A stretch of DNA of 22,933 nt from a virus (IMGVR_UViG_2609459824_000003:1-22933), one strand, 5' to 3'; positions 1,173 to 19,672 are shown, counted from the first letter of the stretch. Notes: generated by a model not told the origin, from the sequence alone. Program-made: numbers and translations.

Positions 1173-1198
1173 CCCTGTTCACACTGTAACCATCACGA

Positions 1199-1219
1199 AC
1201 CGCTCCGGCGGTTTTTTTA
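1199..1219 (+). terminator. Intrinsic-terminator-like hairpin between terminase and capsid genes
   Basis: ACCGC (1199-1203), loop TCCG, GCGGT (1208-1212), followed by TTTTTTT (1213-1219). A strong RBS AGGAGG (1225-1230) and the next start codon follow immediately. Confidence 0.55.
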
Positions 1220-1235
1220 TTTTCAGGAGGCTGAT

Positions 1236-3173
1236 GTGACTCTTAAACGGGCCTGTTCCCTGCTGACGGTGAAATCCTTCAGTGAGGATGAACGGGTGAT
1301 CACCGGGATTGCGTCAACGCCTTCTCCGGATCGGGATGGTGACATCCTGGAGCCGGAGGGCGCGGAGTTTGGCAGTGCGATCCCGTTTCTCTGGCAGCAT
1401 GACCATTCCCGCCCGGTGGGGCAGTGTACGGTGCGCCGGGTCAGCGAAGGGCTGGAAATCACGGCAACACTGGTGAAGCCCGTACCGGATATGCCGTCGC
1501 AACTGGCTGCCCGGCTGGATGAGGTCTGGGCGGCCATTAAGACCGGGCTGGTCAGGGGGCTGTCCGTGGGCTTCCGTCCCCATGAATACACCTTTCTGGA
1601 CGGAGGCGGACTGCATTTTCTGCGCTGGGAACTGATGGAGGTGTCTGCCGTCACCGTGCCCGCGAATGCGGAATGCACCATCCGGACCATTAAATCTTAC
1701 GACCGCCCGTTTTCTGCCGCGTCCGGCAACCGGAAACCGGTGGTGAAAATCGCATCTTCTGCCGGCGCTGCGGCACAGTCAACAACCGTTTTTCATAAGG
1801 AAAAGACCATAATGAATATTGGCGAACAGATTAAAAGTTTTGAAAACAAGCGTGCAGCGCTGGCAGCCTCCCTTGAGGAGGTCATGACCAAAGCCGCAGA
1901 GGAAGGGCGCACGCTGGATGTGGAGGAGGAAGAGCATTACGACAACACCGCAGCGGAAATCCGTCAGGTGGATGCGCACCTGAAGCGCCTGCGTGAACTG
2001 GAAGCCGGTAAGGCCGCCACGGCGCAGCCGGTGAAACAGGCCGGTAACGGGAATGTGGCCGCGGTGGCTTCTGCGCCGGTGATCCGTGTGGAGCAGAAAC
2101 TGGATAAGGGGATTGGCTTCGCCCGCTTTGCCAAATCGCTGGCTGCGGCTAAAGGCGTCCGATCTGAAGCCCTGGAAGTGGCCCGTCGTCAGTATCCGGA
2201 TGACAGTCGTCTGCATCATGTCCTGAAATCGGCAGTGGGCGCGGGGACCACCACGGATCCGCAGTGGGCAGGCAGCCTGTCTGAATATCAGGAATACGCA
2301 CAGGACTTTATTGATTACCTGCGTCCGCAGACCATTATCGGGCGATTTGGTCAGGGCGGGATCCCTGCACTTCGTCAGGTGCCATTCAATATCCGTGTGC
2401 ACGCCCAGGTGTCCGGCGGTGCTGCCGGCTGGGTGGGTGAGGGTAAGGCAAAACCCCTGACGAAGTTTGATTTTGAATCCATCACCTTCAGTCATGCGAA
2501 GGTGTCGGCCATTGCGGTACTGACGGAAGAATTGATCCGTTTTTCCAGTCCGGCTGCTGATGCACTGGTCCGTAATGCGCTGGCGGAAGCGGTGGTGGCG
2601 CGTCTGGATACAGACTTTGTGGACCCGAAAAAAGCCGCAGTGGCAGATGTCTCCCCGGCGTCCATCACCCATGATGTGAAGGGCACGGCATCAACCGGTA
2701 ACCCGGATGCGGATGCAGAGGCTGCGTTTGGACAGTTTGTGGCAGCAAACCTGCAGCCCACCGGTGCGGTCTGGCTGATGTCCAGCACCAATGCCCTGGC
2801 ACTGTCCATGCGTAAAAATGCGCTGGGTCAGAAGGAATACCCGGACATGACCCTGCTGGGTGGCTCCTTCCAGGGGCTGCCGGTGATTGTCTCCCAGTAC
2901 GTGGGTGACCAGCTGGTGCTGGTGAATGCCCCGGATATTTATCTGGCGGATGACGGCGGCGTGGCAGTGGATATGTCCCGCGAGGCATCACTGGAAATGC
3001 AGTCTGAGCCGACCGGCGACAGTACCACGCCGTCCCCGGTGGAGCTGGTTTCCATGTTCCAGACAGGCAGCGTGGCCATCCGTGCGGAGCGCTGGATCAA
3101 CTGGCGTCGTCGCCGTACTGCGGCGGTGGCGGTGATCACCGGAGTGAACTACGGCAGTGCGTCCGGCGGCTGA
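1236..3173 (+). CDS. Fused prohead protease (HK97 gp4/S78-like) - scaffold (delta-domain-like coiled coil) - major capsid protein (HK97 fold)
   Basis: Continuous 645-codon ORF starting at GTG 1236, 5 nt after AGGAGG. The N-terminal ~165 aa carry prohead-protease motifs (GIASTPSPDRDGDIL...PFLWQHDHSRPVG...GLSVGF...EVSAVTVPAN). An in-frame ATG at 1812 preceded by AAGGAAAAG starts a coiled-coil segment (MNIGEQIKSFENKRAALAASLEEV...) followed by a capsid-like body. Confidence 0.8.
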   Translation: MTLKRACSLLTVKSFSEDERVITGIASTPSPDRDGDILEPEGAEFGSAIPFLWQHDHSRPVGQCTVRRVSEGLEITATLVKPVPDMPSQLAARLDEVWAAIKTGLVRGLSVGFRPHEYTFLDGGGLHFLRWELMEVSAVTVPANAECTIRTIKSYDRPFSAASGNRKPVVKIASSAGAAAQSTTVFHKEKTIMNIGEQIKSFENKRAALAASLEEVMTKAAEEGRTLDVEEEEHYDNTAAEIRQVDAHLKRLRELEAGKAATAQPVKQAGNGNVAAVASAPVIRVEQKLDKGIGFARFAKSLAAAKGVRSEALEVARRQYPDDSRLHHVLKSAVGAGTTTDPQWAGSLSEYQEYAQDFIDYLRPQTIIGRFGQGGIPALRQVPFNIRVHAQVSGGAAGWVGEGKAKPLTKFDFESITFSHAKVSAIAVLTEELIRFSSPAADALVRNALAEAVVARLDTDFVDPKKAAVADVSPASITHDVKGTASTGNPDADAEAAFGQFVAANLQPTGAVWLMSSTNALALSMRKNALGQKEYPDMTLLGGSFQGLPVIVSQYVGDQLVLVNAPDIYLADDGGVAVDMSREASLEMQSEPTGDSTTPSPVELVSMFQTGSVAIRAERWINWRRRRTAAVAVITGVNYGSASGG

Positions 3174-3188
3174 GTCTGATAAGGAGGA

Positions 3189-3208
3189 CGGGAGGCGTGC
3201 GCCTCCCG
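3189..3208 (+). promoter_or_regulatory. GC-rich stem-loop downstream of the capsid gene (no U-tract)
   Basis: CGGGAGGC (3189-3196), loop GTGC, GCCTCCCG (3201-3208): perfect 8-bp stem 16 nt after the capsid stop codon. It is not followed by a T-run, so it is more likely an mRNA-stabilising or processing structure than an intrinsic terminator. Confidence 0.35.
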
Positions 3209-3217
3209 TAACAGGTT

Positions 3218-3439
3218 ATGGCAAAGATCCGATATCTGCAGGGCACGCATGATGCCCGGGCCGGGGATATCCGTGATGTGGCACAGCCGTGTGCGGAGGT
3301 GCTGGTTCGCCTGGGAAAGGCGGAGTACATCACGGTGCGACGTCCGGCAGGTCAGAAAAAGAAACGTGATGCGGAGCATGGCGAATGTGGAACCTTTTAC
3401 GGCGAACCCGAAAAAACCAGAAATCAGGACGTGACGTAA
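3218..3439 (+). CDS. Hypothetical small basic protein (73 aa) between capsid and portal genes
   Basis: ATG-initiated ORF filling the capsid-portal gap. It has no convincing Shine-Dalgarno and I recognise no family. Its TAA stop (3437-3439) overlaps a candidate GTG start (3436) in the portal frame. Confidence 0.25.
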   Translation: MAKIRYLQGTHDARAGDIRDVAQPCAEVLVRLGKAEYITVRRPAGQKKKRDAEHGECGTFYGEPEKTRNQDVT

Positions 3440-4749
3440 GAGAGGCGGGCTGGACCAGCCTGTTTCAGGCGGTGGCTGAGCCCTTTTCCGGCGCCTGGCA
3501 GCAGGGCGTGAAAGCCGATCCTGAAGCCGTCCTCTCCTTTCATGCGGTGTTTGCATGTATTTCGCTGATATCCCAGGATATCGCCAAAATGCGGCTGCGT
3601 CTTATGCAGACGGATGCGCATGGGATACGCAGGGAAACGCGCCGGGGGGATATTGCCCGCCTCTGTCGTCGTCCCAACGCCCAGCAGAACCGCATCCAGT
3701 TTTTTGAACTGTGGCTGAACGCCAAACTGCGTCATGGCAATACGGTGGTGCTGAAAATCCGTAATGCCCGGGGGCAGATCAAAGAACTGCGTATTCTGGA
3801 CTGGAGCCGGGTTGAACCTCTGGTGGCGGATGACGGCGAGGTGTTCTACCGCATCACGCCGGACCGGAACTGCGGGATCACGGAGGCGGTGACGGTGCCT
3901 GCCCGGGAAGTGATCCACGACCGGTTTAACTGTTTTTTTCATCCGCTTATAGGATTGCCGCCGGTGTATGCCGCCGGGCTGGCGGCCACGCAGGGGCATC
4001 ATATTCAGGAAAATTCGACGTCTTTTTTCAGAAATGGCGGCAGGCCGTCCGGGGTGATTGAGATCCCCGGCAGTATTACGGAAGAAAATGCGAAAAAACT
4101 GAAGAGCAACTGGGACAGCGGGTATACAGGCGAAAATGCGGGGAAAACGGCCATTCTGAGCAACGGGGCAAAATACAACCCCACGACGTTTTCACCTGTG
4201 GATGCGCAGACGGTGGAACAACTGAAGATGACCGCTGAAATTGTCTGTTCGGTGTTCCGTGTCCCGGCCTACAAGATTGGCGTGGGACAACCGCCTTCCA
4301 GTGACAACGTGGAGGCGCTGGAGCAGCAGTATTATTCCCAGTGCCTGCAGACGCTGATTGAGTCCATTGAACTGTTACTGGATGAGGCGCTGGAAACGGG
4401 GGAAAACGAGAGTACAGAATTTGATGTCACCACGCTGCTGAGAATGGACAGTGAGCGGCGCATGAAAACGCTGGGGGATGCGGTGAAAAATACGCTTCTC
4501 ACGCCCAATGAGGCCCGTAAACGGGAGAACCTGCCGCCCCTGGCCGGCGGTGATGCACTGTATCTTCAGCAGCAGAACTACAGTCTGGAGGCGCTGTCCC
4601 GTCGTGATGCCCGTGAGGATCCGTTCGCGTCTGCCGGGAAAACAGTTTCATCACAGCTGCCTGACGGCGCATCTGACGGTAATAAGGCAATCAGTGAAAC
4701 AGAGCATGATGCGGTGAAAGCGATGTTCAGGGGGATACTGAGAAAATGA
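3385..4749 (+). CDS. Phage portal protein (HK97-family)
   Basis: Translation has portal signatures: SFFRNGGRPSGVIEIPG, YTGENAGKTAILSNGAKY, TAEIVCSVFRVPAYKIGVG. The start is uncertain: first ATG at 3385, alternative GTG at 3436. The stop overlaps the next gene's start (ATGA at 4746-4749). Confidence 0.8.
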   Translation: MWNLLRRTRKNQKSGRDVREAGWTSLFQAVAEPFSGAWQQGVKADPEAVLSFHAVFACISLISQDIAKMRLRLMQTDAHGIRRETRRGDIARLCRRPNAQQNRIQFFELWLNAKLRHGNTVVLKIRNARGQIKELRILDWSRVEPLVADDGEVFYRITPDRNCGITEAVTVPAREVIHDRFNCFFHPLIGLPPVYAAGLAATQGHHIQENSTSFFRNGGRPSGVIEIPGSITEENAKKLKSNWDSGYTGENAGKTAILSNGAKYNPTTFSPVDAQTVEQLKMTAEIVCSVFRVPAYKIGVGQPPSSDNVEALEQQYYSQCLQTLIESIELLLDEALETGENESTEFDVTTLLRMDSERRMKTLGDAVKNTLLTPNEARKRENLPPLAGGDALYLQQQNYSLEALSRRDAREDPFASAGKTVSSQLPDGASDGNKAISETEHDAVKAMFRGILRK

Positions 4750-6455
4750 CGGAACGGGAACTGTCCATTATTCGTGCACTGGGAGAAGAATTCTCCACAG
4801 TGCTGGCGGATTTACAGCGCACATTTGAGGGGAAGATGGCCTCGCAGGCACAAGCGTTTGAAGAGAAACTGACTTCCCTGTCGGCGGTATTACAGAAGCA
4901 TGTGACGGTGGATGAGGTGCGTCCGGTTCTGCAGGCGATGGTGGATGACGCTGTGGGGGCCATTCCGGTACCGCGTGATGGTCGTGATTATGATCCGGAT
5001 GTACTGCAGCAGGCGGTGAATGATGCGGTCGCAAATATTCCGCAGCCGGCGGACGGTAAAAGTCTCACCCCGGATGATGTGCGTCCGATGCTTGAACAGA
5101 TGGTGAAGGAGGCTGTAAGCCATATCCCTGTTCCGCGCGACGGTCGTGACTATGATCCCGATGTTCTGCAGAAGGCGGTGAATGATGCGGTCGCAAATAT
5201 TCCGCAGCCGGGGGACGGTAAAAGTCTCACCCCGGATGATGTGCGTCCGATGCTTGAACAGATGGTGAAGGAGGCTGTAAGCCATATCCCTGTTCCGCGT
5301 GATGGTCGTGACTACGATCCGGAAGTACTGCAGAAGGCGGTGAATGATGCGGTCGCAAATATTCCGCAGCCGGGGGACGGTAAAAGTCTCACCCCGGATG
5401 ATGTGCGTCCGATGCTTGAACAGATGGTGAAGGAGGCTGTAAGCCATATCCCTGTTCCGCGCGACGGTCGTGACTATGATCCCGATGTTCTGCAGAAGGC
5501 GGTGAATGATGCGGTCGCAAATATTCCGCAGCCGGCGGACGGTAAAAGTCTCACCCCGGATGATGTGCGTCCGATGCTTGAACAGATGGTGAAGGAGGCT
5601 GTAAGCCATATCCCTGTTCCGCGCGACGGTCGTGACTATGATCCCGATGTTCTGCAGAAGGCGGTGAATGATGCGGTCGCAAATATTCCGCAGCCGGCGG
5701 ACGGTAAAAGTCTCACCCCGGATGATGTGCGTCCGATGCTTGAACAGATGGTGAAGGAGGCTGTAAGCCATATCCCTGTTCCGCGCGACGGTCGTGACTA
5801 TGATCCCGATGTTCTGCAGAAGGCGGTGAATGATGCGGTCGCAAATATTCCGCAGCCGGCAGACGGTAAAAGTCTCACCCCGGATGATGTGCGTCCGATG
5901 CTTGAACAGATGGTGAAGGAGGCGGTAAGCCATATTCATGTTCCGCGTGATGGTCGTGACTACGATCCGGATGTTCTGCAGAAGGCGGTTCTGGATGCGG
6001 TGAGTGCCCTGCCGGCTCCGCAGGACGGGCGTGATGCCACGGCTCTGGAAATACTCCCCGCCATTGACGATCAAAAATCCTTTCCCCGGGGCACGTATGC
6101 CACACACCAGGGCGGACTCTGGCGGGCGTATGAAAAAACGCACGGGATGCGGGGATGGGAATGCCTGGTTGACGGGGTGGCGGATATTGACGTCAGCATG
6201 ACGGGTGAGCGGTTGTTCTCTGTGGTGGTCCGGCAGAGCAGTGGCCAGCGTACGGAAAAAACATTTTCCCTGCCGGTGATGCTCTACCGCGGTGTGTTCA
6301 GAGCCGGTGAAACCTACCACCCCGGCGATACGGTGACGTGGGGGGGCTCGCTGTGGCACTGCAACAGTATGACCGAAGATAAACCCGGAGAAGCTCATTC
6401 ATCAGCCTGGACCCTGGCGGCAAAACGTGGGCGGGATGCAGGAGGCGGAAAATGA
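4746..6455 (+). CDS. Structural-module protein of unknown function with seven tandem 54-aa repeats
   Basis: 569-aa ORF translationally coupled to portal (ATGA overlap). It has a coiled-coil-like N-terminus, seven copies of a 54-aa unit (VRPMLEQMVKEAVSHIPVPRDGRDYDPDVLQKAVNDAVANIPQPADGKSLTPDD) and a ~140-aa Trp/Gly-rich C-terminal domain. Confidence 0.8.
   Translation: MTERELSIIRALGEEFSTVLADLQRTFEGKMASQAQAFEEKLTSLSAVLQKHVTVDEVRPVLQAMVDDAVGAIPVPRDGRDYDPDVLQQAVNDAVANIPQPADGKSLTPDDVRPMLEQMVKEAVSHIPVPRDGRDYDPDVLQKAVNDAVANIPQPGDGKSLTPDDVRPMLEQMVKEAVSHIPVPRDGRDYDPEVLQKAVNDAVANIPQPGDGKSLTPDDVRPMLEQMVKEAVSHIPVPRDGRDYDPDVLQKAVNDAVANIPQPADGKSLTPDDVRPMLEQMVKEAVSHIPVPRDGRDYDPDVLQKAVNDAVANIPQPADGKSLTPDDVRPMLEQMVKEAVSHIPVPRDGRDYDPDVLQKAVNDAVANIPQPADGKSLTPDDVRPMLEQMVKEAVSHIHVPRDGRDYDPDVLQKAVLDAVSALPAPQDGRDATALEILPAIDDQKSFPRGTYATHQGGLWRAYEKTHGMRGWECLVDGVADIDVSMTGERLFSVVVRQSSGQRTEKTFSLPVMLYRGVFRAGETYHPGDTVTWGGSLWHCNSMTEDKPGEAHSSAWTLAAKRGRDAGGGK
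4917..6050 (+). repeat. Tandem array of 7 x 162-bp direct repeats, in frame within the CDS
   Basis: The motif GTGCGTCC recurs at 4917, 5079, 5241, 5403, 5565, 5727 and 5889, exactly 162 bp apart. The six central copies are nearly identical at the nucleotide level; the first and last are diverged. Each unit is an internal duplication of a ~27-aa sub-repeat (IP-x-P-x-DG...PD-x-V...AV). Confidence 0.9.
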
Positions 6456-6778
6456 CGGCATTACTGACACTGGAAGAGATCAAGGCACATCTGCGTGTCG
6501 ACCATGACGCGGATGATGACATGCTGATGGACAAGGTTCGTCAGGCTACCGCCGTGCTGCTGGCCTACATTCAGGGCAGCCGGGATAAAGTGATCCGTGA
6601 GGACGGTGAACTGATCCCGGGCGAGGCATTAACCCGGATGAAGGGGGCTGCCATGCGACTGACCGGGATGCTGTACCGGAATCCGGATCTTGCGGAGCGG
6701 GAAGAACTGCTTCAGGGGGAGCTGCCGTTTTCTGTTTCCGTGCTGATTTACGATTTGCGTTGTCCGACGGTGTTATGA
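6452..6778 (+). CDS. Head-tail connector protein (gp6-like)
   Basis: ATGA overlap with the upstream gene. N-terminus LTLEEIKAHLRVDHDADDDMLMDKV is the characteristic start of gp6-like connector proteins. Size 108 aa. Confidence 0.7.
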   Translation: MTALLTLEEIKAHLRVDHDADDDMLMDKVRQATAVLLAYIQGSRDKVIREDGELIPGEALTRMKGAAMRLTGMLYRNPDLAEREELLQGELPFSVSVLIYDLRCPTVL

Positions 6779-6787
6779 GGAGGGGGA

Positions 6788-7138
6788 ATGGCAATATCTG
6801 CAGGTCGTCTGACACAGATGATAAGTGTTCTGAATCCGGTGTTAACCCGTAACGCTGCCGGAGAAATGACGGAAGAATGGGTGTCATGCGGGAAAATTCA
6901 TGCGGATATCCGTGGCAGGAGCAGCCGGGAGCGGATGCAGTCCGGTGCGGAAATGGCGCAGGCGGAAATCCGCATCTGGGTGCGCGGTCAGTCCGGTCGG
7001 GAAATCACGGCAGCGTCACGACTTCATGTGCTGAGTGGTCCATGGCGTGACCGGATCCTGAACGTTGTCGGGCTGCCCGTGCCGGATGCGACCGGCGGGC
7101 GTCTGGAAATTCTCTGTCGGCTGGGAGGGGAAAAATGA
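6788..7138 (+). CDS. Head closure / head-tail adaptor protein
   Basis: RBS GAGGAGGGGG directly upstream of ATG. 116 aa, with size and position matching head-closure proteins and an IRIWVRGQSGREITAASRL segment. The call is mainly positional. Confidence 0.6.
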   Translation: MAISAGRLTQMISVLNPVLTRNAAGEMTEEWVSCGKIHADIRGRSSRERMQSGAEMAQAEIRIWVRGQSGREITAASRLHVLSGPWRDRILNVVGLPVPDATGGRLEILCRLGGEK

Positions 7139-7581
7139 TCGAAACCCTGCTGGATTTTTCGGGGCTGGAGGACATCAGCCGCGATTTGCAGCTTCTGAGT
7201 GGTGCGGAAAATAACCGGGTGCTGCGTGAGGCAACCCGTGCGGGTGCGAATGTGCTGAAAGAAGAAGTGGTGTCACGGGCACCGGTACGCAGGGGAAAAC
7301 TGCGCCGCAATGTGGTGATCCTTTCCCGGCGCTCCCGCGATGGCGGGATGGAATCCGGTGTCCATATCCGTGGTGTTAATCCGGACACCGGTAACAGCGA
7401 TAACACCATGAAGGCGGATAACCCGCGCAATGCTTTCTACTGGCGGTTTGTGGAAATGGGGACTGTGAATATGCCACCGCACCCGTTTGTGCGCCCGGCG
7501 TTTGATGTGCGCAGTGAACAGGCAGCTCAGGTGGCGATTGCGCGGATGAACCGGGCCATTGATGAGGTACTGAGACGATGA
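7135..7581 (+). CDS. HK97 gp10-family tail/neck component protein
   Basis: ATGA overlap with the upstream gene. Contains the family-typical C-terminal motif FYWRFVEMGT....PHPFVRPAF. Confidence 0.7.
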   Translation: MIETLLDFSGLEDISRDLQLLSGAENNRVLREATRAGANVLKEEVVSRAPVRRGKLRRNVVILSRRSRDGGMESGVHIRGVNPDTGNSDNTMKADNPRNAFYWRFVEMGTVNMPPHPFVRPAFDVRSEQAAQVAIARMNRAIDEVLRR

Positions 7582-7922
7582 CGGAGGCGGATTTGTATCC
7601 TCATCTGGCGCATCTTGCCGGCGGGCAGGGGTACCCGTATGTGGTCCCCCTGCTGGATGGCAGGCCGTCGGTGGCGCTTCCGTGGGTGGTTTTCAGCCTG
7701 ATTTCATCGGTGTCAGCGGACGTGATGGGCGGGCAGGCGGAGTCCTCAGTGTCGGTGCAGATAGACGTTTATGCCGGGACTGTGACGCAGGCGCGTCAGA
7801 TACGTCAGGACGCCCGTGAAGCCATAATGCTGCTGGCCCCGGGATCCGTCAGTGAAATGCAGGACTATATTCCGGAAAACCGCTGTTACCGTGCAACCCT
7901 GGAGTTTCAGGTCACGGTGTGA
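7578..7922 (+). CDS. Putative tail completion / terminator protein
   Basis: ATGA-coupled 114-aa ORF between the gp10-like gene and the major tail protein gene. Assignment is by position and size only. Confidence 0.5.
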   Translation: MTEADLYPHLAHLAGGQGYPYVVPLLDGRPSVALPWVVFSLISSVSADVMGGQAESSVSVQIDVYAGTVTQARQIRQDAREAIMLLAPGSVSEMQDYIPENRCYRATLEFQVTV

Positions 7923-7949
7923 CTTTTTCTTTTTTCTACAAAACCATAC

Positions 7950-7970
7950 CCCGCCGCGTGCGGGTTTTTT
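7950..7970 (+). terminator. Intrinsic-terminator-like hairpin upstream of the major tail protein gene
   Basis: CCCGC (7950-7954), loop CGCGT, GCGGG (7960-7964), then TTTTTT (7965-7970). Followed by RBS CAGGAGG and ATG at 7987. Confidence 0.5.
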
Positions 7971-7986
7971 ATTATCAGGAGGCAGA

Positions 7987-8703
7987 ATGTCTGCTTTGTA
8001 TGAACGCTCACAGCTGACGCAGGTGATGATTTCATCTGCCCCGGCGACTGCTGAAACTATGGATAAGGCGGAATATCTGCGCCTGGATTGCACCATCAAG
8101 GAAGTCCAGTTCACCGCCGGTCAGAAACAGGATATTGATGTGACCACGCTCTGCTCCACCGAGCAGGAGAACATCAACGGTCTGGGGGCGTCGTCTGAGA
8201 TTTCCATGTCGGGTAATTTTTATCTGAATCAGGCCCAGAACGCCCTGCGTGATGCCTATGACAATGACGCGTTGTATGCGTTTAAGGTGCTGTTTCCGTC
8301 CGGTAAGGGCTTTAAGTTCCTGGCGGAAGTGCGTCAGCACACCTGGTCATCCGGTACCAACGGCGTGGTGGCAGCAACGTTTTCACTGCGTATGAAAGGC
8401 AAACCGGTGTCCTTTGTGGTACCGCTGGCGTTTGTGAAAAATCTGGATAAAACACTTACCGTGAATACAGGTGCGCTGCTGACAATGTCAGTCAGTGCCA
8501 ACGGGGGAACGCCGCCGTATAAATACGCCTGGAAGAAGGATGGTCAGCCGGTTGACGGGCAGACGACAGACACCTTCAGTAAGCCAGGAGCGCAGTCCGC
8601 TGATGCGGGGAAATATACCTGCGTGGTGACCGATTCGGCAGAGAAAGCACAGAGTGTGACGTCTGTTGAATGCACCGTGACAGTGAGCGCAGCCGCCGGA
8701 TAA
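7987..8703 (+). CDS. Major tail protein with C-terminal Ig-like domain
   Basis: The ORF-track start at 7852 would read through the terminator; the ATG at 7987 has a proper RBS (CAGGAGG). The C-terminal ~80 aa show an Ig-like pattern (YKYAWKKDGQPVDG...ADAGKYTCVVTD...VECTVTV). Position is directly upstream of the chaperone pair. Confidence 0.8.
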   Translation: MSALYERSQLTQVMISSAPATAETMDKAEYLRLDCTIKEVQFTAGQKQDIDVTTLCSTEQENINGLGASSEISMSGNFYLNQAQNALRDAYDNDALYAFKVLFPSGKGFKFLAEVRQHTWSSGTNGVVAATFSLRMKGKPVSFVVPLAFVKNLDKTLTVNTGALLTMSVSANGGTPPYKYAWKKDGQPVDGQTTDTFSKPGAQSADAGKYTCVVTDSAEKAQSVTSVECTVTVSAAAG

Positions 8704-8717
8704 GGGGATGGGTCATC

Positions 8718-9092
8718 ATGAAAAAGGATCTGAAAACGCTGGCGCTGGCCAGACTGTCAGGGTTTCGTCATAAAACGGTGAAGGTGCCGGAATGGGGTAA
8801 TGTCAGCGTGGTGCTGCGGGAGCCTTCGGCAGAGGCCTGGTATCTGTGGCAGGAAGTGCTCAATGGTGATGGAGAGGATGACGATACCCTGTCGGTGGTG
8901 GCGAAAACCCGCCGTAACCTGGAAGCGGATGTGACGCTGTTCTGCGATGTCCTGTGTGATACGGATCTGCAGCGGGTGTTCGCTCCGGACGACCGTGAGC
9001 AGGTGCTGGCCGTCTATGGTCCGGTACATGCCCGGTTGCTGCGTCAGGCACTGGAACTGATCGCTGATGCAGAGTCGGCCAGAAAAAAGTAG
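8718..9092 (+). CDS. Tail assembly chaperone (lambda G-equivalent)
   Basis: 124-aa acidic protein between the major tail and tape measure genes. RBS AAGGGGA upstream of ATG 8718. Ends ...ESARKK with TAG at 9090-9092, immediately after a slippery heptamer. Confidence 0.75.
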   Translation: MKKDLKTLALARLSGFRHKTVKVPEWGNVSVVLREPSAEAWYLWQEVLNGDGEDDDTLSVVAKTRRNLEADVTLFCDVLCDTDLQRVFAPDDREQVLAVYGPVHARLLRQALELIADAESARKK

Positions 9093-9397
9093 CCCGCCCG
9101 GAAATTCGCTTTCTGATGCGACTTGCGCTCCGTCTGGGGCGCACCTTATCCGAACTGCGGCACAGCCTGAGTGTGAGCGAGGCGATGATGTGGATGGAGT
9201 TCGACAGGGTATCCCCGCTGGGTGATGAGCGCGGGGATATCCGTAATGCACAGATCGTGAAAGCGGTTTTTGGGGCACAGGGGATGAATGTTGCACTGAA
9301 GGACGCCATGCTCTGCTGGGGCGAGGATGAGGATAAGCCGGAGGTGGATCCGTTTGCGGCGCTGGAAGACGCGCTGAGCTTCGCAGCACAGTCATGA
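8718..9397 (+). CDS. Tail assembly chaperone frameshift fusion (lambda GT-equivalent), via -1 frameshift at 9083-9089
   Basis: The -1 frame is open from 9089 to TGA at 9395-9397, giving a predicted fusion of about 226 aa. A G/GT frameshift is conserved in this position across long-tailed phages. Confidence 0.6.
9083..9089 (+). promoter_or_regulatory. Programmed -1 ribosomal frameshift slippery site (A AAA AAG)
   Basis: AAAAAAG occupies the last two codons of the G-like frame. A -1 slip reads GTA at 9089 and continues in the frame of ORF 9116-9397, which is open from 9089. Confidence 0.65.
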
Positions 9398-9406
9398 ATG
9401 ATGAGA

Positions 9407-9427
9407 ACCGCTGAGGCGGTTTTTTTA
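9407..9427 (+). terminator. Intrinsic-terminator-like hairpin upstream of the tape measure gene
   Basis: ACCGC (9407-9411), loop TGAG, GCGGT (9416-9420), then TTTTTTT (9421-9427). Stem and flank are identical to the hairpin at 1199-1219. Confidence 0.55.
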
Positions 9428-9444
9428 CGCCCGGAGAAAGGTGA

Positions 9445-12400
9445 ATGGCGACGTTACGTGAACTGATTATCAAAATTTCGGCAAATTCGCAGTCATTCCA
9501 GTCGGAGATCCAGCGGGCTTCCCGCATGGGCAGTGAATATTACCGGACCCTGCAGAATGGCGGGCGTCAGGCTGCCGCAGTCGCCCGGGAGCAGCGACGC
9601 GCCCTGGCTGAGCTGAACAGCCAGTTGACGGAAATCCGCGCTTCAGCTGCCGGAACGGCGGGGGCATTTGCAGGTGCCTTTGCCACCGGACACCTGATTT
9701 CTCTGGCCGATGAATGGAGTTCCGTGAATGCCCGACTGAAACAGGCGTCGCAGTCATCCGATGAATTTTCGTCATCACAGAAAGTGCTGATGGATATCAG
9801 CCAGCGGACGGGCACGGCATTTTCAGATAATGCGGCCCTGTTTGCCCGCTCGGCAGCCTCAATGCGTGAATATGGTTACAGTGCTGATGATGTGCTGAAG
9901 GTGACGGAGGCCATTTCCACGGGGCTGAAAATCTCCGGTGCCAGTACGGCAGAGGCGGGCTCGGTGATCACCCAGTTCAGCCAGGCGCTGGCACAGGGTG
10001 TGTTACGCGGTGAGGAATTTAATTCGGTCAATGAAAGCGGAGACCGGATCGTACGTGCACTGGCTGCGGGTATGGGCGTGGCCCGTAAAGACCTTAAGGC
10101 GATGGCGGACGACGGCAAACTGACGGCGGATAAAGTCGTTCCTGCGTTAATCAGCCAGCTGGGGGTATTGCGTGATGAATATGCCGCCATGCCGGAAACG
10201 GTCTCTGACGGGATCACAAAGGTGGAAAACGCCTTTATGGCCTGGGTGGGTGGCGCGAATGAAGCCAGCGGAGCGACGAAAACGCTCTCCGGCGTGCTGA
10301 ACGGTGTTGCCGGTAATATTGATAATGTGGCAACAGCCGCGGGGGCGCTGGTTGCCGTCGGGGTTGCCCGGTACTTTGGCAATATGGCCTCCGGAGCGGT
10401 GTCTGCCACGGCAGGACTTGTGACGGCAGCACGTAATGAAGTGGCACTGGCGGAAGCACAGCTCAGGGGGACGCAGATTGCCACGGCGCGGGCAAGGGCA
10501 GCCGTGTACCGTGCACAGCAGGCTGTGGCGGCAGCCCGCGGGACGGAGATGCAGATTGCTGCAGAAGCCCGTCTGGCGGCCACACAGGAACGCCTGAACA
10601 GAAATATTGCTGCCAGAACCGCAGCCCAGAATGAGCTGAACAGTACAACGGCGGTGGGCTCACGTCTGATGACTGGTGCGTTGGGACTGGTTGGTGGCGT
10701 ACCCGGACTGGTGATGCTGGGGGCAGCAGCATGGTATACGCTGTACCAGAATCAGGAGCAGGCCAGGGAGTCAGCGCGCCAGTATGCACTGACGATAGAT
10801 GAAATCGCGCATAAAACGCCGTCAATGTCTTTGCCTGAAGCCTCAGATAATGAAGGACGAACACGGGCGGCGCTGGCAGAGCAGAACCGGCTGATTGATG
10901 AACAGGCCAGCCGGGTGAAATCCCTGCAGGAAAAAATCGCTGGATATCAGTATGTTCTGGCTAACCCTGGCTGGACAACCGGTGACGGATTCATGATAAA
11001 CCATCTGACATCGGTGAAGACCGTGACGGAAGGGCTTTCTCAGGCAACAGAGCAGCTTGCCGTTGAGCAGTCCCGTCTGGCACAGATGCAGGAAAAAGCG
11101 CAGTCCATTCAGGATGTGCTTGCCGGGCTGGAAGACCGTCGTGTGGCGTTAATTCGTCAGCAGGCGGCAGAGCAGAATAAGGTGTACCAGTCCATGCTGG
11201 TTATGAACGGTCAGCATACGGAATTCAACCGTCTGCTGGGGCTGGGGAATGAACTGCTTCAGCAGCGTCAGGGACTGGTGAATGTACCGTTACGGCTGCC
11301 GCAGGCCACCCTGGATGATAAACAGCAGAGCGCCCTGACAAAAACAGAACGTGAGCTGGCCCTGTCCCGACTGAAGGGGGAGGAAAAAGAGCGTGCCCGG
11401 CTGGGGTATGCGGCGGATGACCTTGGTTTTGTGGGGGATTCGTATCAGGAGGCGAGACAGCGTTATATCAGTAATGCTCTGGAAGCCTGGCGTAATAACG
11501 AGGCGAACAAACCTAAATCCCGGGGTGGAAAATCAGAGACGGAAAAAGCGGAAGACAGTTTTTCCCGGCTACTGAAGCAGCAGAAAGAGCAACTGGCACT
11601 GGCGGGTCAGAATACAGAGCTGGCGAAGCTGAAGTACCAGACTGCGCAGGGCGAACTGAAAACCCTGACGGAGATGCAGAAGCAGGAACTGCTGCGTAAC
11701 GCGGCCCTGATTGACCAGCAAAAAATCCGGGAACAGTTGCGATCCCGGGAAGAGACCCTGAAGAATGATAATGTGGCTGCGCGTGCATCAAATGAAGCCG
11801 AACTGCTGGGATACGGGCAGGGAGAACGAGCCAGGGAACGCATGCGGGAGTTGCAGCAGATCCGCGACAGCTTCCGCCAGAAGGATGCGGACCTTCAGTC
11901 TCAGTATCAGACCGGGGATATCAGTGAGGATTTTTACAGACAGGCACGGGCACAGAACGCGCAGTATCTGAGCGAACGCCTTAAGGACCAGGCAGCCTTT
12001 TATGCCGAATCGGATGCGCAGCGTGCGGACTGGCAGAAAGGCTTGCAGGAGGGGCTCAGTAACTGGGTGGACAATGCATCCGATTACGCCTCACAGGCAG
12101 CACAGCTTGCGACGGAGGGTATCTCAGGGATGGTGAATAACATCACGGAGATGCTGAACGGAAACAAAGTGGAATGGCGCAACTGGGCCTCATCCGTACT
12201 GCAGGAAATCTCAAAAGTTCTTATGAATGCCGCGATTGTCAACGGAATTAAGACGGCGGCAAACGGTATGTCCGGTGCGGGAGGATTTATTGGCAGCATT
12301 GGTGACTGGCTGGGCGGTGCGGTGGCCAATGCAAAAGGCGGCGTGTATACCTCGGCAAACCTGAGTGCGTACAGCAACAGCATTGTGGACACGCCCACGT

Positions 12401-12687
12401 ACTTTGCGTTTGCAAAAGGGGCCGGGCTGATGGGGGAAGCCGGACCTGAAGCCATTATGCCCCTGACCCGGGCGGCGGATGGCTCGCTGGGCGTACGCGC
12501 GGTGGGCAGTATGAACGGCAGTGCCGGTCTGGTGTATTCCCCGGTCTACCACATCGCCATTCAGAATGACGGGGCTAACGGACAGATAGGGGCGGAGGCG
12601 GCAGGCAGTCTTGTGCAGCTGATTGACCAGCGGGTGCAGGCGGTGATGCTGTCCATGCGACGTGACGGAGGAATGCTGAGTGGCTGA
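9445..12687 (+). CDS. H: Tail tape measure protein (lambda H-like C-terminus)
   Basis: 1080-aa ORF, the longest gene in the tail module, with RBS GGAGAAAGG. Ala/Gln-rich helical central region. C-terminal region (...FAKGAGLMGEAGPEAIMPL...IQNDGANGQIG...MRRDGGMLSG) resembles the lambda gpH C-terminus. Confidence 0.85.
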   Translation: MATLRELIIKISANSQSFQSEIQRASRMGSEYYRTLQNGGRQAAAVAREQRRALAELNSQLTEIRASAAGTAGAFAGAFATGHLISLADEWSSVNARLKQASQSSDEFSSSQKVLMDISQRTGTAFSDNAALFARSAASMREYGYSADDVLKVTEAISTGLKISGASTAEAGSVITQFSQALAQGVLRGEEFNSVNESGDRIVRALAAGMGVARKDLKAMADDGKLTADKVVPALISQLGVLRDEYAAMPETVSDGITKVENAFMAWVGGANEASGATKTLSGVLNGVAGNIDNVATAAGALVAVGVARYFGNMASGAVSATAGLVTAARNEVALAEAQLRGTQIATARARAAVYRAQQAVAAARGTEMQIAAEARLAATQERLNRNIAARTAAQNELNSTTAVGSRLMTGALGLVGGVPGLVMLGAAAWYTLYQNQEQARESARQYALTIDEIAHKTPSMSLPEASDNEGRTRAALAEQNRLIDEQASRVKSLQEKIAGYQYVLANPGWTTGDGFMINHLTSVKTVTEGLSQATEQLAVEQSRLAQMQEKAQSIQDVLAGLEDRRVALIRQQAAEQNKVYQSMLVMNGQHTEFNRLLGLGNELLQQRQGLVNVPLRLPQATLDDKQQSALTKTERELALSRLKGEEKERARLGYAADDLGFVGDSYQEARQRYISNALEAWRNNEANKPKSRGGKSETEKAEDSFSRLLKQQKEQLALAGQNTELAKLKYQTAQGELKTLTEMQKQELLRNAALIDQQKIREQLRSREETLKNDNVAARASNEAELLGYGQGERARERMRELQQIRDSFRQKDADLQSQYQTGDISEDFYRQARAQNAQYLSERLKDQAAFYAESDAQRADWQKGLQEGLSNWVDNASDYASQAAQLATEGISGMVNNITEMLNGNKVEWRNWASSVLQEISKVLMNAAIVNGIKTAANGMSGAGGFIGSIGDWLGGAVANAKGGVYTSANLSAYSNSIVDTPTYFAFAKGAGLMGEAGPEAIMPLTRAADGSLGVRAVGSMNGSAGLVYSPVYHIAIQNDGANGQIGAEAAGSLVQLIDQRVQAVMLSMRRDGGMLSG

Positions 12688-13021: not shown

Positions 13022-13719
13022 TGCAGGATATTCGCGAAGAAAGTCTGAACGAGTCGGTTAAGTCAGAGCAGTCACCGCGGGTGGTACTCTGGGAAATCGA
13101 CCTGACGGTACAGGGCGGTGAGCGGTATTTTTTCTGTAATGAGCTGAATGAAAAAGGGGAGCCGGTCACCTGGCAGGGGCGGCAATATCAGGCATACCCG
13201 ATTGACGGCAGCGGTTTTGAGATGAGCGGGAAGGGCAGCAGTGCCAGACCGTCGCTGACGGTGTCCAATCTGTTCGGTCTGGTCACCGGGATGGCGGAAG
13301 ACCTGCAGAGTCTGGTGGGGGCCACGGTGGTCCGCCGCCGGGTGTATGCCCGTTTTCTGGATGCGGTGAATTTCGTTGCGGGCAATCCGGAGGCGGACCC
13401 GGAGCAGGAGCTGAGTGACCGCTGGGTGGTGGAGCAGATGTCGCAGCTGACAGCCATGACGGCCTCGTTTGTGCTGGCTACACCGACCGAGACGGATGGG
13501 GCGCTGTTTCCCGGTCGCATCATGCTGGCGAACACCTGTATGTGGGATTACCGGGGAGATGAATGCGGGTATAACGGTCCTGCGGTGGCGGATGAGTTCG
13601 ACAACCCCACCACGGATATCCGTAAGGACAGATGCAGCAAGTGCATGCGCGGGTGTGAACTGCGCAGGAATGTCGGCAATTTTGGCGGTTTCCTTTCCAT
13701 TAATAAACTTTCGCAGTAA
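13021..13719 (+). CDS. L: Minor tail tip protein L
   Basis: TGATG overlap with M. Translation MQDIREESLNE...VVLWEIDLT...GGERYFFCNE matches lambda gpL. The C-terminal Cys cluster (CMWDYRGDECGY...CSKCMRGC) corresponds to the gpL Fe-S cluster ligands. Confidence 0.9.
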   Translation: MQDIREESLNESVKSEQSPRVVLWEIDLTVQGGERYFFCNELNEKGEPVTWQGRQYQAYPIDGSGFEMSGKGSSARPSLTVSNLFGLVTGMAEDLQSLVGATVVRRRVYARFLDAVNFVAGNPEADPEQELSDRWVVEQMSQLTAMTASFVLATPTETDGALFPGRIMLANTCMWDYRGDECGYNGPAVADEFDNPTTDIRKDRCSKCMRGCELRRNVGNFGGFLSINKLSQ

Positions 13720-15051: not shown

Positions 15052-15056
15052 AACAT

Positions 15057-15089
15057 AAAAAAATCCCGCAGTGATCGCGGAGCTGCGGG
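15057..15089 (-). terminator. Intrinsic terminator oriented for the minus strand, in the I-J spacer
   Basis: On the minus strand: CCCGCAG, loop CUCCGCGAUCA, CUGCGGG, followed by AUUUUUUU (+ coordinates 15089 down to 15057). On the + strand the same hairpin is followed by GACAGACAAAT with no U-tract, so it is unidirectional against the tail operon. Confidence 0.5.
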
Positions 15090-15153
15090 GACAGACAAAT
15101 GAAGATCAATGTTAAGGAGTTGTTTTTGTTACTCGGGCAAAAAAACACTAACG
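15057..15153 (-). ncRNA. Candidate antisense small RNA (~95 nt) encoded in the I-J intergenic insert
   Basis: A predicted minus-strand promoter would start transcription near 15153 and the minus-oriented terminator ends it near 15057. The predicted transcript contains a CA-rich single-stranded stretch (AGUAACAAAAACAACUCC). There is no credible ORF on either strand. Confidence 0.3.
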
Positions 15154-15160
15154 CAGCGAA

Positions 15161-15188
15161 ATTATAAGCGCCACAGTCAGTGTGTGAA
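15161..15188 (-). promoter_or_regulatory. Candidate sigma70 promoter on the minus strand (TTCACA-N16-TATAAT)
   Basis: The reverse complement of + 15161-15166 (ATTATA) is a perfect TATAAT. The reverse complement of + 15183-15188 (TGTGAA) is TTCACA, a 5/6 match to TTGACA, at 16-bp spacing. Confidence 0.3.
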
Positions 15189-15262
15189 AATGTGAAGATA
15201 TTCAGAATTTTTATGCCATTACCGGTTTTAACCAACAGGATTATCGGTGGGCATGAAAGAAA

Positions 15263-15296
15263 ACCCCGGTATCTGCTGATACCGGGGTTTCTCTTT
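15263..15296. terminator. Bidirectional terminator-like hairpin in the I-J spacer
   Basis: Perfect 11-bp stem ACCCCGGTATC / GATACCGGGGT with loop TGCT (15263-15288). Flanked by GAAAGAAAA upstream and TTCTCTTT downstream, so it is U-rich on both strands. Confidence 0.4.
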
Positions 15297-15393
15297 AGCA
15301 TGGCAGAAATGTGTTTCATGCTTTTCGGGCGAAGGATATCCGACTTCTGTACGGAATGGCAAGTGGCGGTTAATTTATTCAGGGGAAGGCTGT

Positions 15394-18300
15394 ATGGGAA
15401 AAGGTGGCGGTAAGGCACACACGCCTCGTGAGGCGAAGGATAATCTCAAATCCACGCAGATGATGAGCGTGATTGATGCGATTGGTGAGGGACCGATAGA
15501 AGGTCCGGTGAAGGGACTGCAGAGTATCCTGGTGAACAAAACCCCGCTGACGGACACGGACGGTAATCCCGTGATACACGGTGTGACGGCGGTCTGGCGC
15601 GCCGGGGAGCAGGAGCAGACACCACCGGAAGGCTTTGAGTCCTCCGGTGCTGAAACCGGACTGGGCGTGGAAGTGACGAAGGCAAAACCGGTGACGCGCA
15701 CCATTACGTCCGCGAACATTGACCGCCTGCGGGTTACCTTCGGGGTGCAGTCACTGGTGCAGACCACGTCAAAGGGCGACCGTAATCCTTCCTCTGTCCG
15801 GATTCTGATTCAGTTACAGCGTAATGGCCGCTGGGTGACGGAAAAGGATGTCACCATTAACGGCAAGACCACCTCGCAGTTCCTGGCCTCGGTGATTCTG
15901 GATAATCTGCCTCCCCGGCCCTTTAACATCCGGATGGTCAGGGAGACGGCGGACAGCACCACGGACCAGCTGCAGAATAAGACGCTGTGGTCGTCATACA
16001 CCGAAATCATCGATGTGAAACAGTGCTACCCGAACACGGCCATTGTGGGGCTGCAGGTGGATGCGGAGCAGTTCGGCGGCCAGCAGATGACGGTGAACTA
16101 CCATATCCGCGGTCGCATCATCCAGGTGCCGTCAAACTATGACCCGGAAAAACGCACGTACAGTGGTATCTGGGACGGCAGCCTGAAACCGGCATACAGC
16201 AACAACCCGGCCTGGTGTCTGTGGGACATGCTGACTCACCCGCGCTACGGCATGGGAAAACGTCTGGGGGCGGCGGATGTGGACAAGTGGGCGCTGTATG
16301 CCATCGGGCAGTACTGCGACCAGACGGTCCCGGATGGTTTCGGGGGGACCGAGCCGCGGATGACCTTTAATGCGTACCTGGCACAACAGCGTAAGGTGTG
16401 GGACGTTCTCAGTGATTTCTGCTCTGCGATGCGCTGTATGCCGGTATGGAACGGCCAGACGCTGACGTTCGTTCAGGACCGTCCGTCGGATGTGGTGTGG
16501 CCGTACACCAACAGCGATGTGGTGGTGGATGATAACGGCGTGGGTTTCCGCTACAGCTTCAGTGCCCTGAAGGACCGGCACACGGCAGTGGAGGTGAATT
16601 ACACCGACCCGCAGAACGGCTGGCAGACCTCCACGGAACTGGTGGAAGACCCGGAAGCCATACTGCGCTACGGACGCAACCTGCTGAAGATGGACGCGTT
16701 CGGCTGTACCAGCCGCGGTCAGGCCCACCGTGCCGGGCTGTGGGTGATAAAGACCGAACTGCTGGAAACGCAGACGGTGGATTTCACGCTTGGGTCACAG
16801 GGGCTGCGTCACACACCCGGTGACATCATTGAAATCTGTGATAACGACTATGCCGGGACCATGACCGGCGGACGTGTCCTGTCCATCGATGCCGCCAGCC
16901 GTACCCTGACGCTGGACCGGGAGGTGACACTGCCGGAGACCGGCACGGCCACTGTTAATCTGATTAACGGCAGCGGTAAGCCGGCGAGCGTGGCCATCAC
17001 CGCACACCCCGCGCCTGACCGGATACAGGTCAGCACCCTGCCGGATGGTGTGGAGACATACGGGGTGTGGGGACTCTCCCTGCCGTCACTGCGTCGTCGC
17101 CTGTTCCGCTGTGTCTCCATCCGGGAAAACACGGACGGCACGTTCGCCATCACGGCGGTGCAGCACGTACCTGAAAAAGAAGCCATCGTGGATAACGGGG
17201 CCCGCTTTGAGCCGCAGTCAGGCACCCTGAACAGCGTTATCCCACCGGCAGTGCAGCACCTGACGGTGGAGGTGAGCGCAGCTGACGGCCAGTATCTGGC
17301 GCAGGCGAAATGGGACACGCCGCGGGTGGTGAAGGGTGTGCGCTTCAGTCTGCGCCTGACCAGTGGTAAGGGAACGGATGCCAGACTGGTGACCACCGCC
17401 ATCACCGCAGACACGGAGCACCGTTTCAGCGGCCTGCCGCTCGGGGAATACACCCTGACGGTGCGGGCGATAAACAGCTATGGCCAGCAGGGTGAACCTG
17501 CCACCACCACCTTCCGGATTACCGCACCGGCAGCACCGTCGCGGATTGAGCTGACGCCGGGCTATTTTCAGATAACCGCAACGCCACATCTTGCCGTTTA
17601 TGACCCGACGGTACAGTTTGAGTTCTGGTTCTCGGAAAAGCGGATTGCGGATATCAGGCAGGTTGAAACCGCAGCCCGCTATCTTGGCTCGGCGCTGTAC
17701 TGGATAGCTGCCAGTATCAATATCAAACCGGGCCATGATTATTATTTTTATATCCGCAGTGTGAATACTGTTGGCAAATCGGCATTCGTGGAGGCTGTCG
17801 GTCGGGCGAGCGATGATGCGGAAGGTTACCTGGATTTTTTCAAAGGAGAAATCGGGAAAACACATCTGGCCCAGGAGCTGTGGACGCAGATTGATAACGG
17901 TCAGCTTGCGCCGGACCTGGCTGAAATCAGGACGTCCATTACGAATGTCAGCAATGAAATCACGCAGACCGTCAATAAAAAACTGGAAAATCAGAGTGCG
18001 GCAATCCAGCAGATACAGAAAGTTCAGGTTGATACAAATAATAACCTGAACAGCATGTGGGCCGTGAAACTGCAGCAGATGCAGGACGGACGCCTTTATA
18101 TTGCGGGTATCGGTGCCGGTATTGAGAATACGCCAGCAGGAATGCAGAGTCAGGTGCTGCTGGCGGCAGACAGGATTGCGATGATTAATCCTGCGAATGG
18201 CAACACAAAGCCGATGTTTGTTGGTCAGGGCGATCAGATATTTATGAATGAAGTGTTCCTGAAATATCTGACGGCTCCCACCATTACCAGCGGCGGTAAT

Positions 18301-18885: not shown

Positions 18886-18910
18886 GGGCGCCAGAAATGG
18901 CGCCTTTTTT
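18886..18910 (+). terminator. Intrinsic terminator downstream of J
   Basis: GGGCGCC (18886-18892), loop AGAAAT, GGCGCC (18899-18904), then TTTTTT (18905-18910). Confidence 0.65.
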
Positions 18911-19534: not shown

Positions 19535-19640
19535 CAACAGACGCCGATTTATCTTCTGTAAATATTGTTATGATACGCAGGTTCATCCACCTTATGGGGT
19601 GAACTGCGTTTGAGGAAACGTAAAGTTACACTGTCCTGAA

Positions 19641-19672
19641 GCCCGTGGCGTCACTGCTGCGGGCTTTTTTTA
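19641..19672 (+). terminator. Intrinsic terminator downstream of lom
   Basis: GCCCG (19641-19645), loop, CGGGC (19660-19664), followed by TTTTTTT (19665-19671). Confidence 0.55.

Follow-up and report, generated by a model that had tools for sequence, protein, structure and literature searches.

Terminator-like hairpins directly before the capsid, tail tube and tape measure genes of a Stx-type lambdoid phage

The viral sequence IMGVR_UViG_2609459824_000003:1-22933 (22,933 nucleotides, referred to here as the window) contains three short hairpins, HP1, HP2 and HP3, each of which is followed by a run of thymines and lies in the gap directly before a gene for a structural protein. The first 9.5 kb of the window are 98–99% identical to long-tailed Stx-converting lambdoid phages (vB_EcoS-783R2, phage 2851, Stx2a_WGPS6, YYZ-2008 and BP-4795). 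By its sequence, the window corresponds to the late morphogenesis region of a phage of this type. The order of the genes was taken from Pfam matches and the annotation of phage 2851. Every gene is on the + strand, as are the hairpins, and most of the genes other than those at the hairpins abut or overlap their neighbours.

HP1 (GAACCGC-TCCG-GCGGTTT, 1197–1214, with seven thymines at 1212–1218; whole element 1197–1218) lies between the C-terminal part of the terminase large subunit (TerL) gene (9–1172, stop codon 1170–1172) and a gene for a prohead protease-major capsid fusion (1236–3173; Pfam Peptidase_S78 and Phage_capsid) that starts with GTG at 1236. HP3 (CCCGC-CGCGT-GCGGG, 7950–7964, with six thymines at 7965–7970; whole element 7950–7970) follows a block of head-tail adaptor, head closure, gp10-like and tail terminator/completion genes (6452–7922, last stop codon 7920–7922) and precedes the gene for the tail tube protein, which has an Ig domain (7987–8703, ATG at 7987). 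HP2 (GAACCGC-TGAG-GCGGTTT, 9405–9422, with seven thymines at 9420–9426; whole element 9405–9426) is placed between the genes for tail chaperones G and T (8718–9397, frame T stop codon 9395–9397) and the tape measure gene (9445–12687, ATG at 9445). The stems have 5–7 pairs, 4–5 of them G-C, and the loops have 4–5 nt. The distance from the upstream stop codon to the hairpin is 24 nt for HP1, 7 nt for HP2 and 27 nt for HP3, and in all three cases 17–19 nt separate the hairpin from the start codon. An earlier note on this DNA had picked out these three hairpins and had described HP1 and HP2 as having the same stem and a different 4-nt loop; inspection and a pattern search bore this out.

The translation start region of the capsid gene (1219–1238) comes directly after the T-run of HP1 and consists of ATTTTC, a Shine-Dalgarno (SD) sequence AGGAGG at 1225–1230 and the GTG codon. 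That of the tail tube gene (7971–7989) has ATTATC, AGGAGG at 7977–7982 and the ATG codon, so that both conform to T6-7-ATT(T/A)TC-AGGAGGC and are nearly alike. Downstream of HP2 there is a weaker SD sequence, GGAG at 9433–9436, and then the tape measure ATG.

Within the window, GAACCGC-N4-GCGGTTTTTTT was found in two copies only, HP1 and HP2, and the pattern GAACCGCNNNNGCGGTTTTTTT with up to three mismatches matched these two sites alone, where none were expected from 100 shuffles. A third GCGGTTTTTTT at 1155–1165 is inside TerL, where it encodes Val-Phe-Phe; this region folds at −4.2 kcal/mol with no stable stem and we took the match to be due to chance. The local folds of the hairpins had energies of −10.9 kcal/mol for HP1 (z −3.2), −10.8 kcal/mol for HP2 (z −4.5) and −8.5 kcal/mol for HP3 (z −1.4).

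Both strands were then scanned for sites having a T-run of six or more residues, a stem of 5 bp or more that included four or more G-C pairs, and a loop of 3–7 nt. This strict scan returned five sites on the + strand, HP1, HP2, HP3 and two that flank lom (18886–18905 and 19638–19667), all of them in intergenic gaps, and no sites on the − strand of the window; the background from 200 dinucleotide shuffles was a mean of 0.02 sites and a maximum of one. A looser scan gave 20 sites window-wide compared with 16.1 ± 3.3 expected, which is not an overall enrichment. It picked up HP1 and HP3 and missed HP2, which we attribute to three of the seven thymines of HP2 being counted as part of the stem. Of the seven intergenic gaps that exceed 40 nt, five contain a site of the strict type, and a sixth, after the capsid gene, contains a strong GC hairpin without a T-run. 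HP1, HP2 and HP3 therefore have the features of intrinsic terminators, namely a GC stem with a short loop, a T-run directly after it that the opposite strand lacks, the same direction as the genes and a location outside coding sequence, and the description of them as terminator-like in the earlier note holds. On the + strand there were no promoter-like sites near any of the hairpins or between the hairpins and the essential genes downstream. No Rfam family reached its gathering threshold in the window.

To follow the hairpins through relatives of the phage, we used the protease-capsid protein as the query and obtained 29 diverged loci (given L numbers below), with one genome per species. All 17 diverged Enterobacterales loci have a hairpin followed by five or more thymines between TerL and the capsid gene. 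They cover 11 genera (Enterobacter, Kluyvera, Buttiauxella, Citrobacter, Atlantibacter, Phytobacter, Kosakonia, Pantoea, Rouxiella, Erwinia and Entomohabitans); the flanking proteins of these loci are 57–82% identical to those of the window. In the other genera the stem at the HP1 site is a near-invariant ACCCGC/GCGGGT, from which HP1 of the window differs by one two-sided change with an A-U pair replacing C-G, and the loop has any of seven sequences (TCCG, GCAT, TTCG, CACG, CTCG, CGCG or TCAG, of which TCCG is the commonest). The stretch from the T-run to the SD sequence is also conserved, as TTTTTTCGTTTC[A/T]GGAGG. Where 1.76 kb has been inserted at this junction, in L015, a different hairpin with five thymines still stands directly before the capsid gene. 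Weaker versions of the HP1 site were seen in Hydrocarboniphaga, Marinobacter and Snodgrassella, and in four more distant loci (L020, L022, L023 and L030) the junction has no terminator-like hairpin.

The tube and tape measure junctions behaved similarly. Every locus with orthologous genes (L003, L004, L006, L009, L010 and phage HK97) has a hairpin and T-run at both, with stems that are each locus's own. Tail modules with little or no match to the tail proteins of the window likewise have a hairpin followed by a T-run at both places, ahead of their tape measure genes and, at a distance of 20–23 nt, ahead of a lambda-type tube gene. At nearly all sites in all loci, 17–24 nt separate the end of the stem from the start codon. 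The T-run is strictly retained at the HP1, HP2 and HP3 junctions, whereas at the post-capsid hairpin, which is strong in the relatives, it is variable or absent. These comparisons of sequence suggest a rule: the capsid, tube and tape measure genes are each immediately preceded by a terminator, whose position is constant and whose sequence turns over.

Among 79 close relatives of the window, the CCGC/GCGG core was constant and the outer pair, the loop and the length of the T-run (6–8) differed. In near-identical relatives, the T-run has 6–8 residues at HP1 (1212–1218) and 7–8 at HP2 (9420–9426), and length variation is also listed for HP3 (7965–7970) and for a T-rich run ahead of it (7924–7936). 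This looks like slippage, and changes in the strength of the terminators would be expected from it. Single folds suggested an outer helix around HP1 (AACGA...TCGTT, with the T-run looped out), which we rejected: it is missing from the window and was unsupported on the alignment, with 81% pairing, one pair mismatched in 6 of 18 sequences and a two-sided change in a single lineage. Signs of recombination breakpoints at HP1 were also sought. L003 and L004 differ in the identity of TerL to that of the window (82% versus 67%), yet they have a common TerL 3′ end and gap sequence, so that the breakpoint probably lies inside TerL.

Features of the same kind have already been annotated in HK97, whose tail genes are orthologous to those of the window (47–74% protein identity). 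The HK97 record (RefSeq NC_002167) lists a 'putative terminator' at 6692–6719, between the tail terminator and tube genes, and another at 8398–8422, just before the tape measure gene, which are the positional orthologues of HP3 and HP2, respectively; further 'putative terminator' features are before the protease gene, after the capsid gene, after the tube gene and before I and J. The HK97 genome was described by Juhala et al. 2000 (cited in PMC3594210). The HK97 sites have the same architecture (AACCCGCC-AGAT-GGCGGGTT, and ACCCGC-TATCAA-GCGGGT with eight thymines) but other stems and loops, and the gp15 moron that lies ahead of the tape measure terminator in HK97 has no counterpart in the window. 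The order of the head genes differs also, since the protease and capsid of the window are fused and come directly after TerL. HP1 therefore has only an analogue in HK97, before the protease gene gp4, and not an orthologue.

In lambda, whose head proteins gave no tblastn match to the head proteins of the window, a hairpin AAGGCCGC-CTGT-GCGGCTTT with seven thymines lies in the D|E gap, ∼17 nt before the capsid gene E. As in the window, there is a GC hairpin without a clean T-run after the capsid gene and there are terminators on both sides of lom. Unlike the window, lambda has no gap and hence no hairpin at U|V or T|H. The late operon of the P22-like phage L, with a single promoter, has a predicted terminator at a module boundary (PMC8022706); phage L differs in being short-tailed with other genes, and its terminator comes after the procapsid module rather than directly before a capsid, tube or tape measure gene. 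Internal terminators of late operons are described in the same paper as not unique to phage L and as having roles that are 'not known', the two offered being partial termination and the stopping of transcription that lacks antitermination (PMC8022706). The earlier note had arrived at the same two roles. A likeness also exists to the RNAs that start at late promoters and end at tR′ (lambda 6S, StxS and IsrK of Gifsy-1), which involve intrinsic terminators overcome by Q; the terminator in the IsrK model also has a CCGC/GCGG stem. The HP2 region scored 27.3 bits against Rfam isrK (RF01394), compared with a gathering score of 50, and had non-standard pairs in the upstream helices. IsrK is encoded directly downstream of antQ, the Q-like gene of Gifsy-1 (PMC4825925), whereas HP2 is in a tail operon with no promoter-like site upstream, and we rejected HP2 as an isrK homologue. 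Known prophage small RNAs (sRNAs; Pas, AgvB/AsxR and lambda PreS/LPR2/6S) were discounted too, as they come from near Q, the lysis region or early operons rather than from these junctions.

The junction between the chaperone and tape measure genes is the original moron site: gp15 of HK97, located there, was the first moron to be described and is expressed from the prophage (PMC3594210). Moron cassettes consist of a promoter, a gene and a terminator (PMC3594210). Inserts of the lysogen-expressed type lie directly upstream of such terminators in HK97 (gp15), in L003 and L006 (Zn-ribbon genes at the gp15 site), in L003 again (a KilA-N gene before the tube gene) and in the window (lom), which speaks for insulation as the role of the terminators. 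The site after lom (19638–19671) fits the moron-terminator model. In contrast, no inserted gene adjoins HP1, HP2 or HP3. The terminator and tape measure start region (T7-ATGGGTGAAA..ATGGC) is kept with an insert in HK97 (L220, 8397–8440), L003 and L006, and without an insert in the window (9398–9444), L004, L009 and L010. What has been regarded as the terminator of the first moron to be described may thus be resident in the operon and not moron-borne. The KilA-N gene of L003 (8800–9610) lies between the tail terminator and tube genes with a terminator on either side. The upstream one retains TTTTTTATTA, which follows HP3 in the window, and the KilA-N insertion therefore apparently landed between a resident terminator and the ribosome-binding site.

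On these grounds, that is the geometry of the hairpins, their restriction to one strand and to intergenic gaps, the conservation of their positions, the turnover of stems and loops and the orthology to sites annotated in HK97, we think it probable that HP1, HP3 and HP2 act as resident Rho-independent terminators within a late operon that depends on Q, in a Stx-type lambdoid phage with a tail of the HK97 kind. Each would occupy a gap with little room to spare, bounded by the stop codon of one assembly module and the ribosome-binding site of the module after it, at three junctions: from packaging to protease-capsid, from head-tail completion to tail tube, and from chaperone G/T to tape measure. 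Polymerases that had not started at the late promoter with Q would stop at HP1, HP3 or HP2, whether they came from lysogen-active moron promoters, from spurious internal promoters or from outside the prophage, and the capsid, tube and tape measure genes would be kept silent in the lysogen. Q-modified polymerase would read through, allowing the essential downstream genes to be expressed in lytic growth.

In phage 2851, which is 98% identical to the window, a Q-like gene (21564–22052) is followed by tRNAs, stx2, the lysis genes and the morphogenesis genes, all on one strand. Since the genes downstream of the hairpins are essential and no promoter-like site follows the hairpins, lytic transcription must pass them, presumably by Q-modified polymerase. 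The proposal of the earlier note that the hairpins are read through in lytic growth is thus soundly based on there being one late operon, no intervening promoter-like site and a Q-like gene in phage 2851; termination at the hairpins, the dependence of read-through on Q and the silencing itself we infer. A comparable insulating terminator has been reported in Tn916, where it blocks premature expression of the element's genes and is overcome by the element's own antitermination (PMC11658703). Tn916 differs in being a Gram-positive conjugative element with another antitermination system and a single site at one end.

Several observations weigh against this assignment. The stems are short (4–5 G-C pairs, −8.5 to −10.9 kcal/mol) and termination may therefore be only partial. 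Q is outside the window and its presence is deduced from the 98% identical phage. The sites are not universal: prophage Sp15 of strain Sakai, a strain with published Term-seq data (PMC7547250), has a lambda-like head and modules and none before the tube or tape measure genes. The location of the hairpins, ∼6 nt upstream of a ribosome-binding site, fits a role in translation or stability at the RNA level equally well. Finally, the HP1 stem is too uniform for an analysis of covariation, its one two-sided change being within the shuffle control; for this reason, the evidence was taken from the freely varying loops and from the different stems at orthologous junctions.

RNA-level roles, whether 3′ protection, segmenting of the mRNA or a U-rich standby site, are possible additions to termination. 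In one combined form, which we put forward tentatively and regard as doubtful, the hairpin, T-run and ribosome-binding site would be a single conserved dual-purpose cassette before the capsid, tube and tape measure genes, with morons borrowing the resident terminator. If this were true, the DNA would carry a lock passable only by Q-modified polymerase and the capsid and tube proteins would be strictly absent from lysogens, while on the read-through mRNA the U-run opened by the hairpin would act as a standby site or enhancer for uncoupled, high-level translation. Morons such as HK97 gp15 would dock upstream of a resident terminator and borrow it. Some abortive-infection systems sense capsid and tail tube proteins.

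Rival readings were weighed as well. The first is punctuation of the RNA, in which the hairpins of the read-through transcript would mainly stop 3′ exonucleases or mark sites of processing, the U-rich stretch being where the RNA is cut. The long mRNA would thereby be divided into segments with separate lifetimes, such as a capsid segment (HP1 to 3188–3209) and a tube-G-T segment (HP3 to HP2). The capsid gene is indeed bracketed by hairpins in the window, in all the relatives, in HK97 and in lambda, and the tube gene has a hairpin on either side in L004, L009 and HK97; terminators are also reported to be able to raise the stability of the mRNA upstream (PMC11696848). Protection of a 3′ end needs no T-run, however, as the post-capsid hairpin illustrates, whereas HP1, HP2 and HP3 have strictly retained theirs, which argues for termination over mere protection of RNA. 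Moreover, what HP1 and HP3 would protect are transcripts for low-copy proteins, the terminase and connector. RNA punctuation as the main role therefore seems unlikely.

A role confined to translation is another alternative and, in our estimate, quite an unlikely one. The hairpin would hold the U-run and SD sequence single-stranded and apart from structure in the upstream coding region, with the U-run serving as a ribosome standby site or S1-binding enhancer for genes that are not translationally coupled. The near-constant 17–24 nt between stem and start codon, the almost identical start regions after HP1 and HP3, the conservation across genera of the stretch between T-run and SD sequence, and the overlapping or abutting arrangement of most other genes in the operon, which suggests coupled translation, are all consistent with this. 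Any U-rich leader would suffice for such a role, however, whereas the strict combination of GC stem, short loop and adjacent T-run is specific to termination. In L003, hairpin A has the full form with the next start codon 135 nt away, demand for the tape measure protein is not high, and compact spacing is to be expected anyway in a tightly packed phage genome.

The earlier note had suggested that the hairpins might set stoichiometry. As partial terminators, they would lower transcript levels stepwise, even for Q-modified polymerase, and thereby tune the ratios of the proteins. This is one of the two possibilities in the literature (PMC8022706) and the short stems do suggest incomplete termination. 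It could also make sense at HP2, and there alone, where genes for the abundant tube and chaperone proteins come first and those for the low-copy tape measure and tip proteins follow. Before the capsid and tube genes, at HP1 and HP3, tuning would be counter-productive, because the proteins most abundant in the virion would then have less mRNA relative to the low-copy terminase and connector encoded upstream. In addition, Q-modified polymerase is largely resistant to terminators, as is known from lambda. Tuning by partial termination thus appears very unlikely overall, and insulation of the late genes from stray transcription is the better reading. A related statement in the earlier note, that the hairpins lie upstream of highly expressed genes, is true of the abundant capsid and tail tube proteins and fails for the tape measure, which is a low-copy protein.

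The identity of HP1 and HP2 had been read in the earlier note as the sign of a reusable module. Common ancestry, by duplication, gene conversion or a small mobile element, would explain why all 18 of the 18 specified bases are the same. Two further cases point in the same direction: the tape measure hairpin of L193, a viral contig, (GAACCGCTCCGGCGGTTTTTTT) is identical to HP1 in 22 of 22 bases including the loop, albeit with a different upstream flank, and L012 has two distant copies of an identical 28-nt terminator. On the other hand, the flanks of HP1 and HP2 are unrelated and the identity is confined to the 18 nt of the hairpin. The two sites also evolve independently, with HP1 reading GGACCGC in 21 of 79 close relatives and HP2 invariant, and orthologous sites elsewhere have other stems. 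The search for the 18-nt motif that the note had proposed found it, exact, in viral contigs whose context is unrelated to that of the window phage. Dispersed repeats of the REP type, or promoter/stem-loop cassettes of the T4 type (PMC2839356), are a poor match, there being only two copies with no identity beyond the hairpin.

We examined how often such identity arises using a set of 153 unique terminator-like hairpins from the diverged loci. The loop-proximal 4-mer was CCGC in 34 of the 153 and the loop had 4 nt in 75. When non-orthologous intergenic terminators on the + strand were paired within each locus, the 7-nt arm was common to both members in 8 of 127 pairs, and 7 of 18 loci (counting the window) held such a pair. 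The commonest form of terminator in these phages is (A)n-CC(C)GC, a 4-nt loop and GCGG(G)-(T)n. The TCCG loop of HP1, the commonest at this site in the other genera, belongs to the UNCG class of stable loops. The identity of HP1 and HP2 is thus best explained by independent convergence on the commonest form, and a copied module is extremely unlikely. Copying or gene conversion is a more plausible origin for the L012 pair, from a prophage region in Rouxiella, than for HP1 and HP2: its two identical terminators (AAAGACCTCGCTTCGGCGGGGTTTTTTT) are at 92–119 and 13260–13287, the second directly before the tape measure gene.

HP1, HP2 and HP3 thus seem to belong to a known and already annotated kind of feature, to which the comparisons add indications of a positional rule that crosses genera and of a resident terminator at the moron site. 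Terminators within single-promoter late operons were first noticed over two decades ago, and the literature still describes their role as unknown (PMC8022706). Of 5426 complete E. coli genomes, 1251 contain the 201 bases surrounding HP1, and a single genome can have as many as seven copies of the head module; the silencing and induction of this head module of Stx-converting phages would therefore be relevant to the fitness of lysogens and to phage production. The positional rule offers clean intergenic targets for mutation in which no protein is altered. The result also argues against taking short identical hairpins as copied modules.

Other hairpins in the window lie close to these genes. A weak hairpin with a T-rich run at 7909–7925 overlaps the stop codon of the tail terminator gene and is in tandem with HP3, 25 nt upstream of it. 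Of the two strict-scan sites that flank lom (18935–19534, from Pfam), the first, between J (15394–18867) and lom, is a terminator-like hairpin GGGCGCCA-GAAA-TGGCGCCT with six thymines (18886–18910). The second is a terminator-like 13-bp hairpin with seven thymines (19638–19671) between lom and the tail fibre gene (19686–22712), a classic position for a moron terminator. Genes M, L, K and I lie between the tape measure gene and J.

The hairpin after the capsid stop codon, which brackets the capsid gene together with HP1, is a 9-bp GC stem with no T-run (3188–3209). It is preceded by an SD-like AAGGAGG (3181–3187) and followed after 8 nt by an ATG at 3218. Most of the Enterobacterales relatives compared have this layout of SD sequence, hairpin, 7–9 nt and ATG, which (at 3181–3220) is reminiscent of T4 genes 38 and 25, where a hairpin bridges a 'split' ribosome-binding site. 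The ATG opens a small conserved open reading frame (ORF) of 73 amino acids (3218–3439) between the capsid and portal genes, which overlaps the start of the latter. This ORF is without a Pfam match and is unannotated in phage 2851; by tblastn it is 34–58% identical in 19 diverged loci. At the other end of the capsid gene, the GTG start codon at 1236 overlaps an out-of-frame ATG-TGA start-stop (1234–1239) that is retained in all close relatives, and in diverged relatives the capsid start is a plain ATG.

The portal (3385–6455) is in two pieces in the window, as overlapping ORFs at 3385–4749 and 4746–6455, where phage 2851 has a single coding sequence of 2580 nt. Several of the matching records also list two portal genes, and the second half gave only low-complexity noise in the Pfam output. 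The split reflects either a frameshift or a pseudogene. In the tail fibre gene, three sub-threshold Rfam matches to isrG on the − strand (20266–21027; 18.8–26 bits compared with a gathering score of 100) are antisense to the gene and probably reflect repeats in the fibre sequence rather than an sRNA.

The 342-nt gap between I and J (15052–15393) has a near-consensus promoter on its − strand, TTCACA-16-TATAAT at 15188–15161, and ∼70 nt downstream of it a hairpin with seven thymines at 15081–15058, whose fold has a z of only −1.3. Together these could give an RNA of ∼95 nt. The gap also contains a 13-bp palindrome at ∼15261–15292. HK97 has a 'reverse moron' at its I-J junction, and the gap of the window is 100% identical in prophages at the ompW site.

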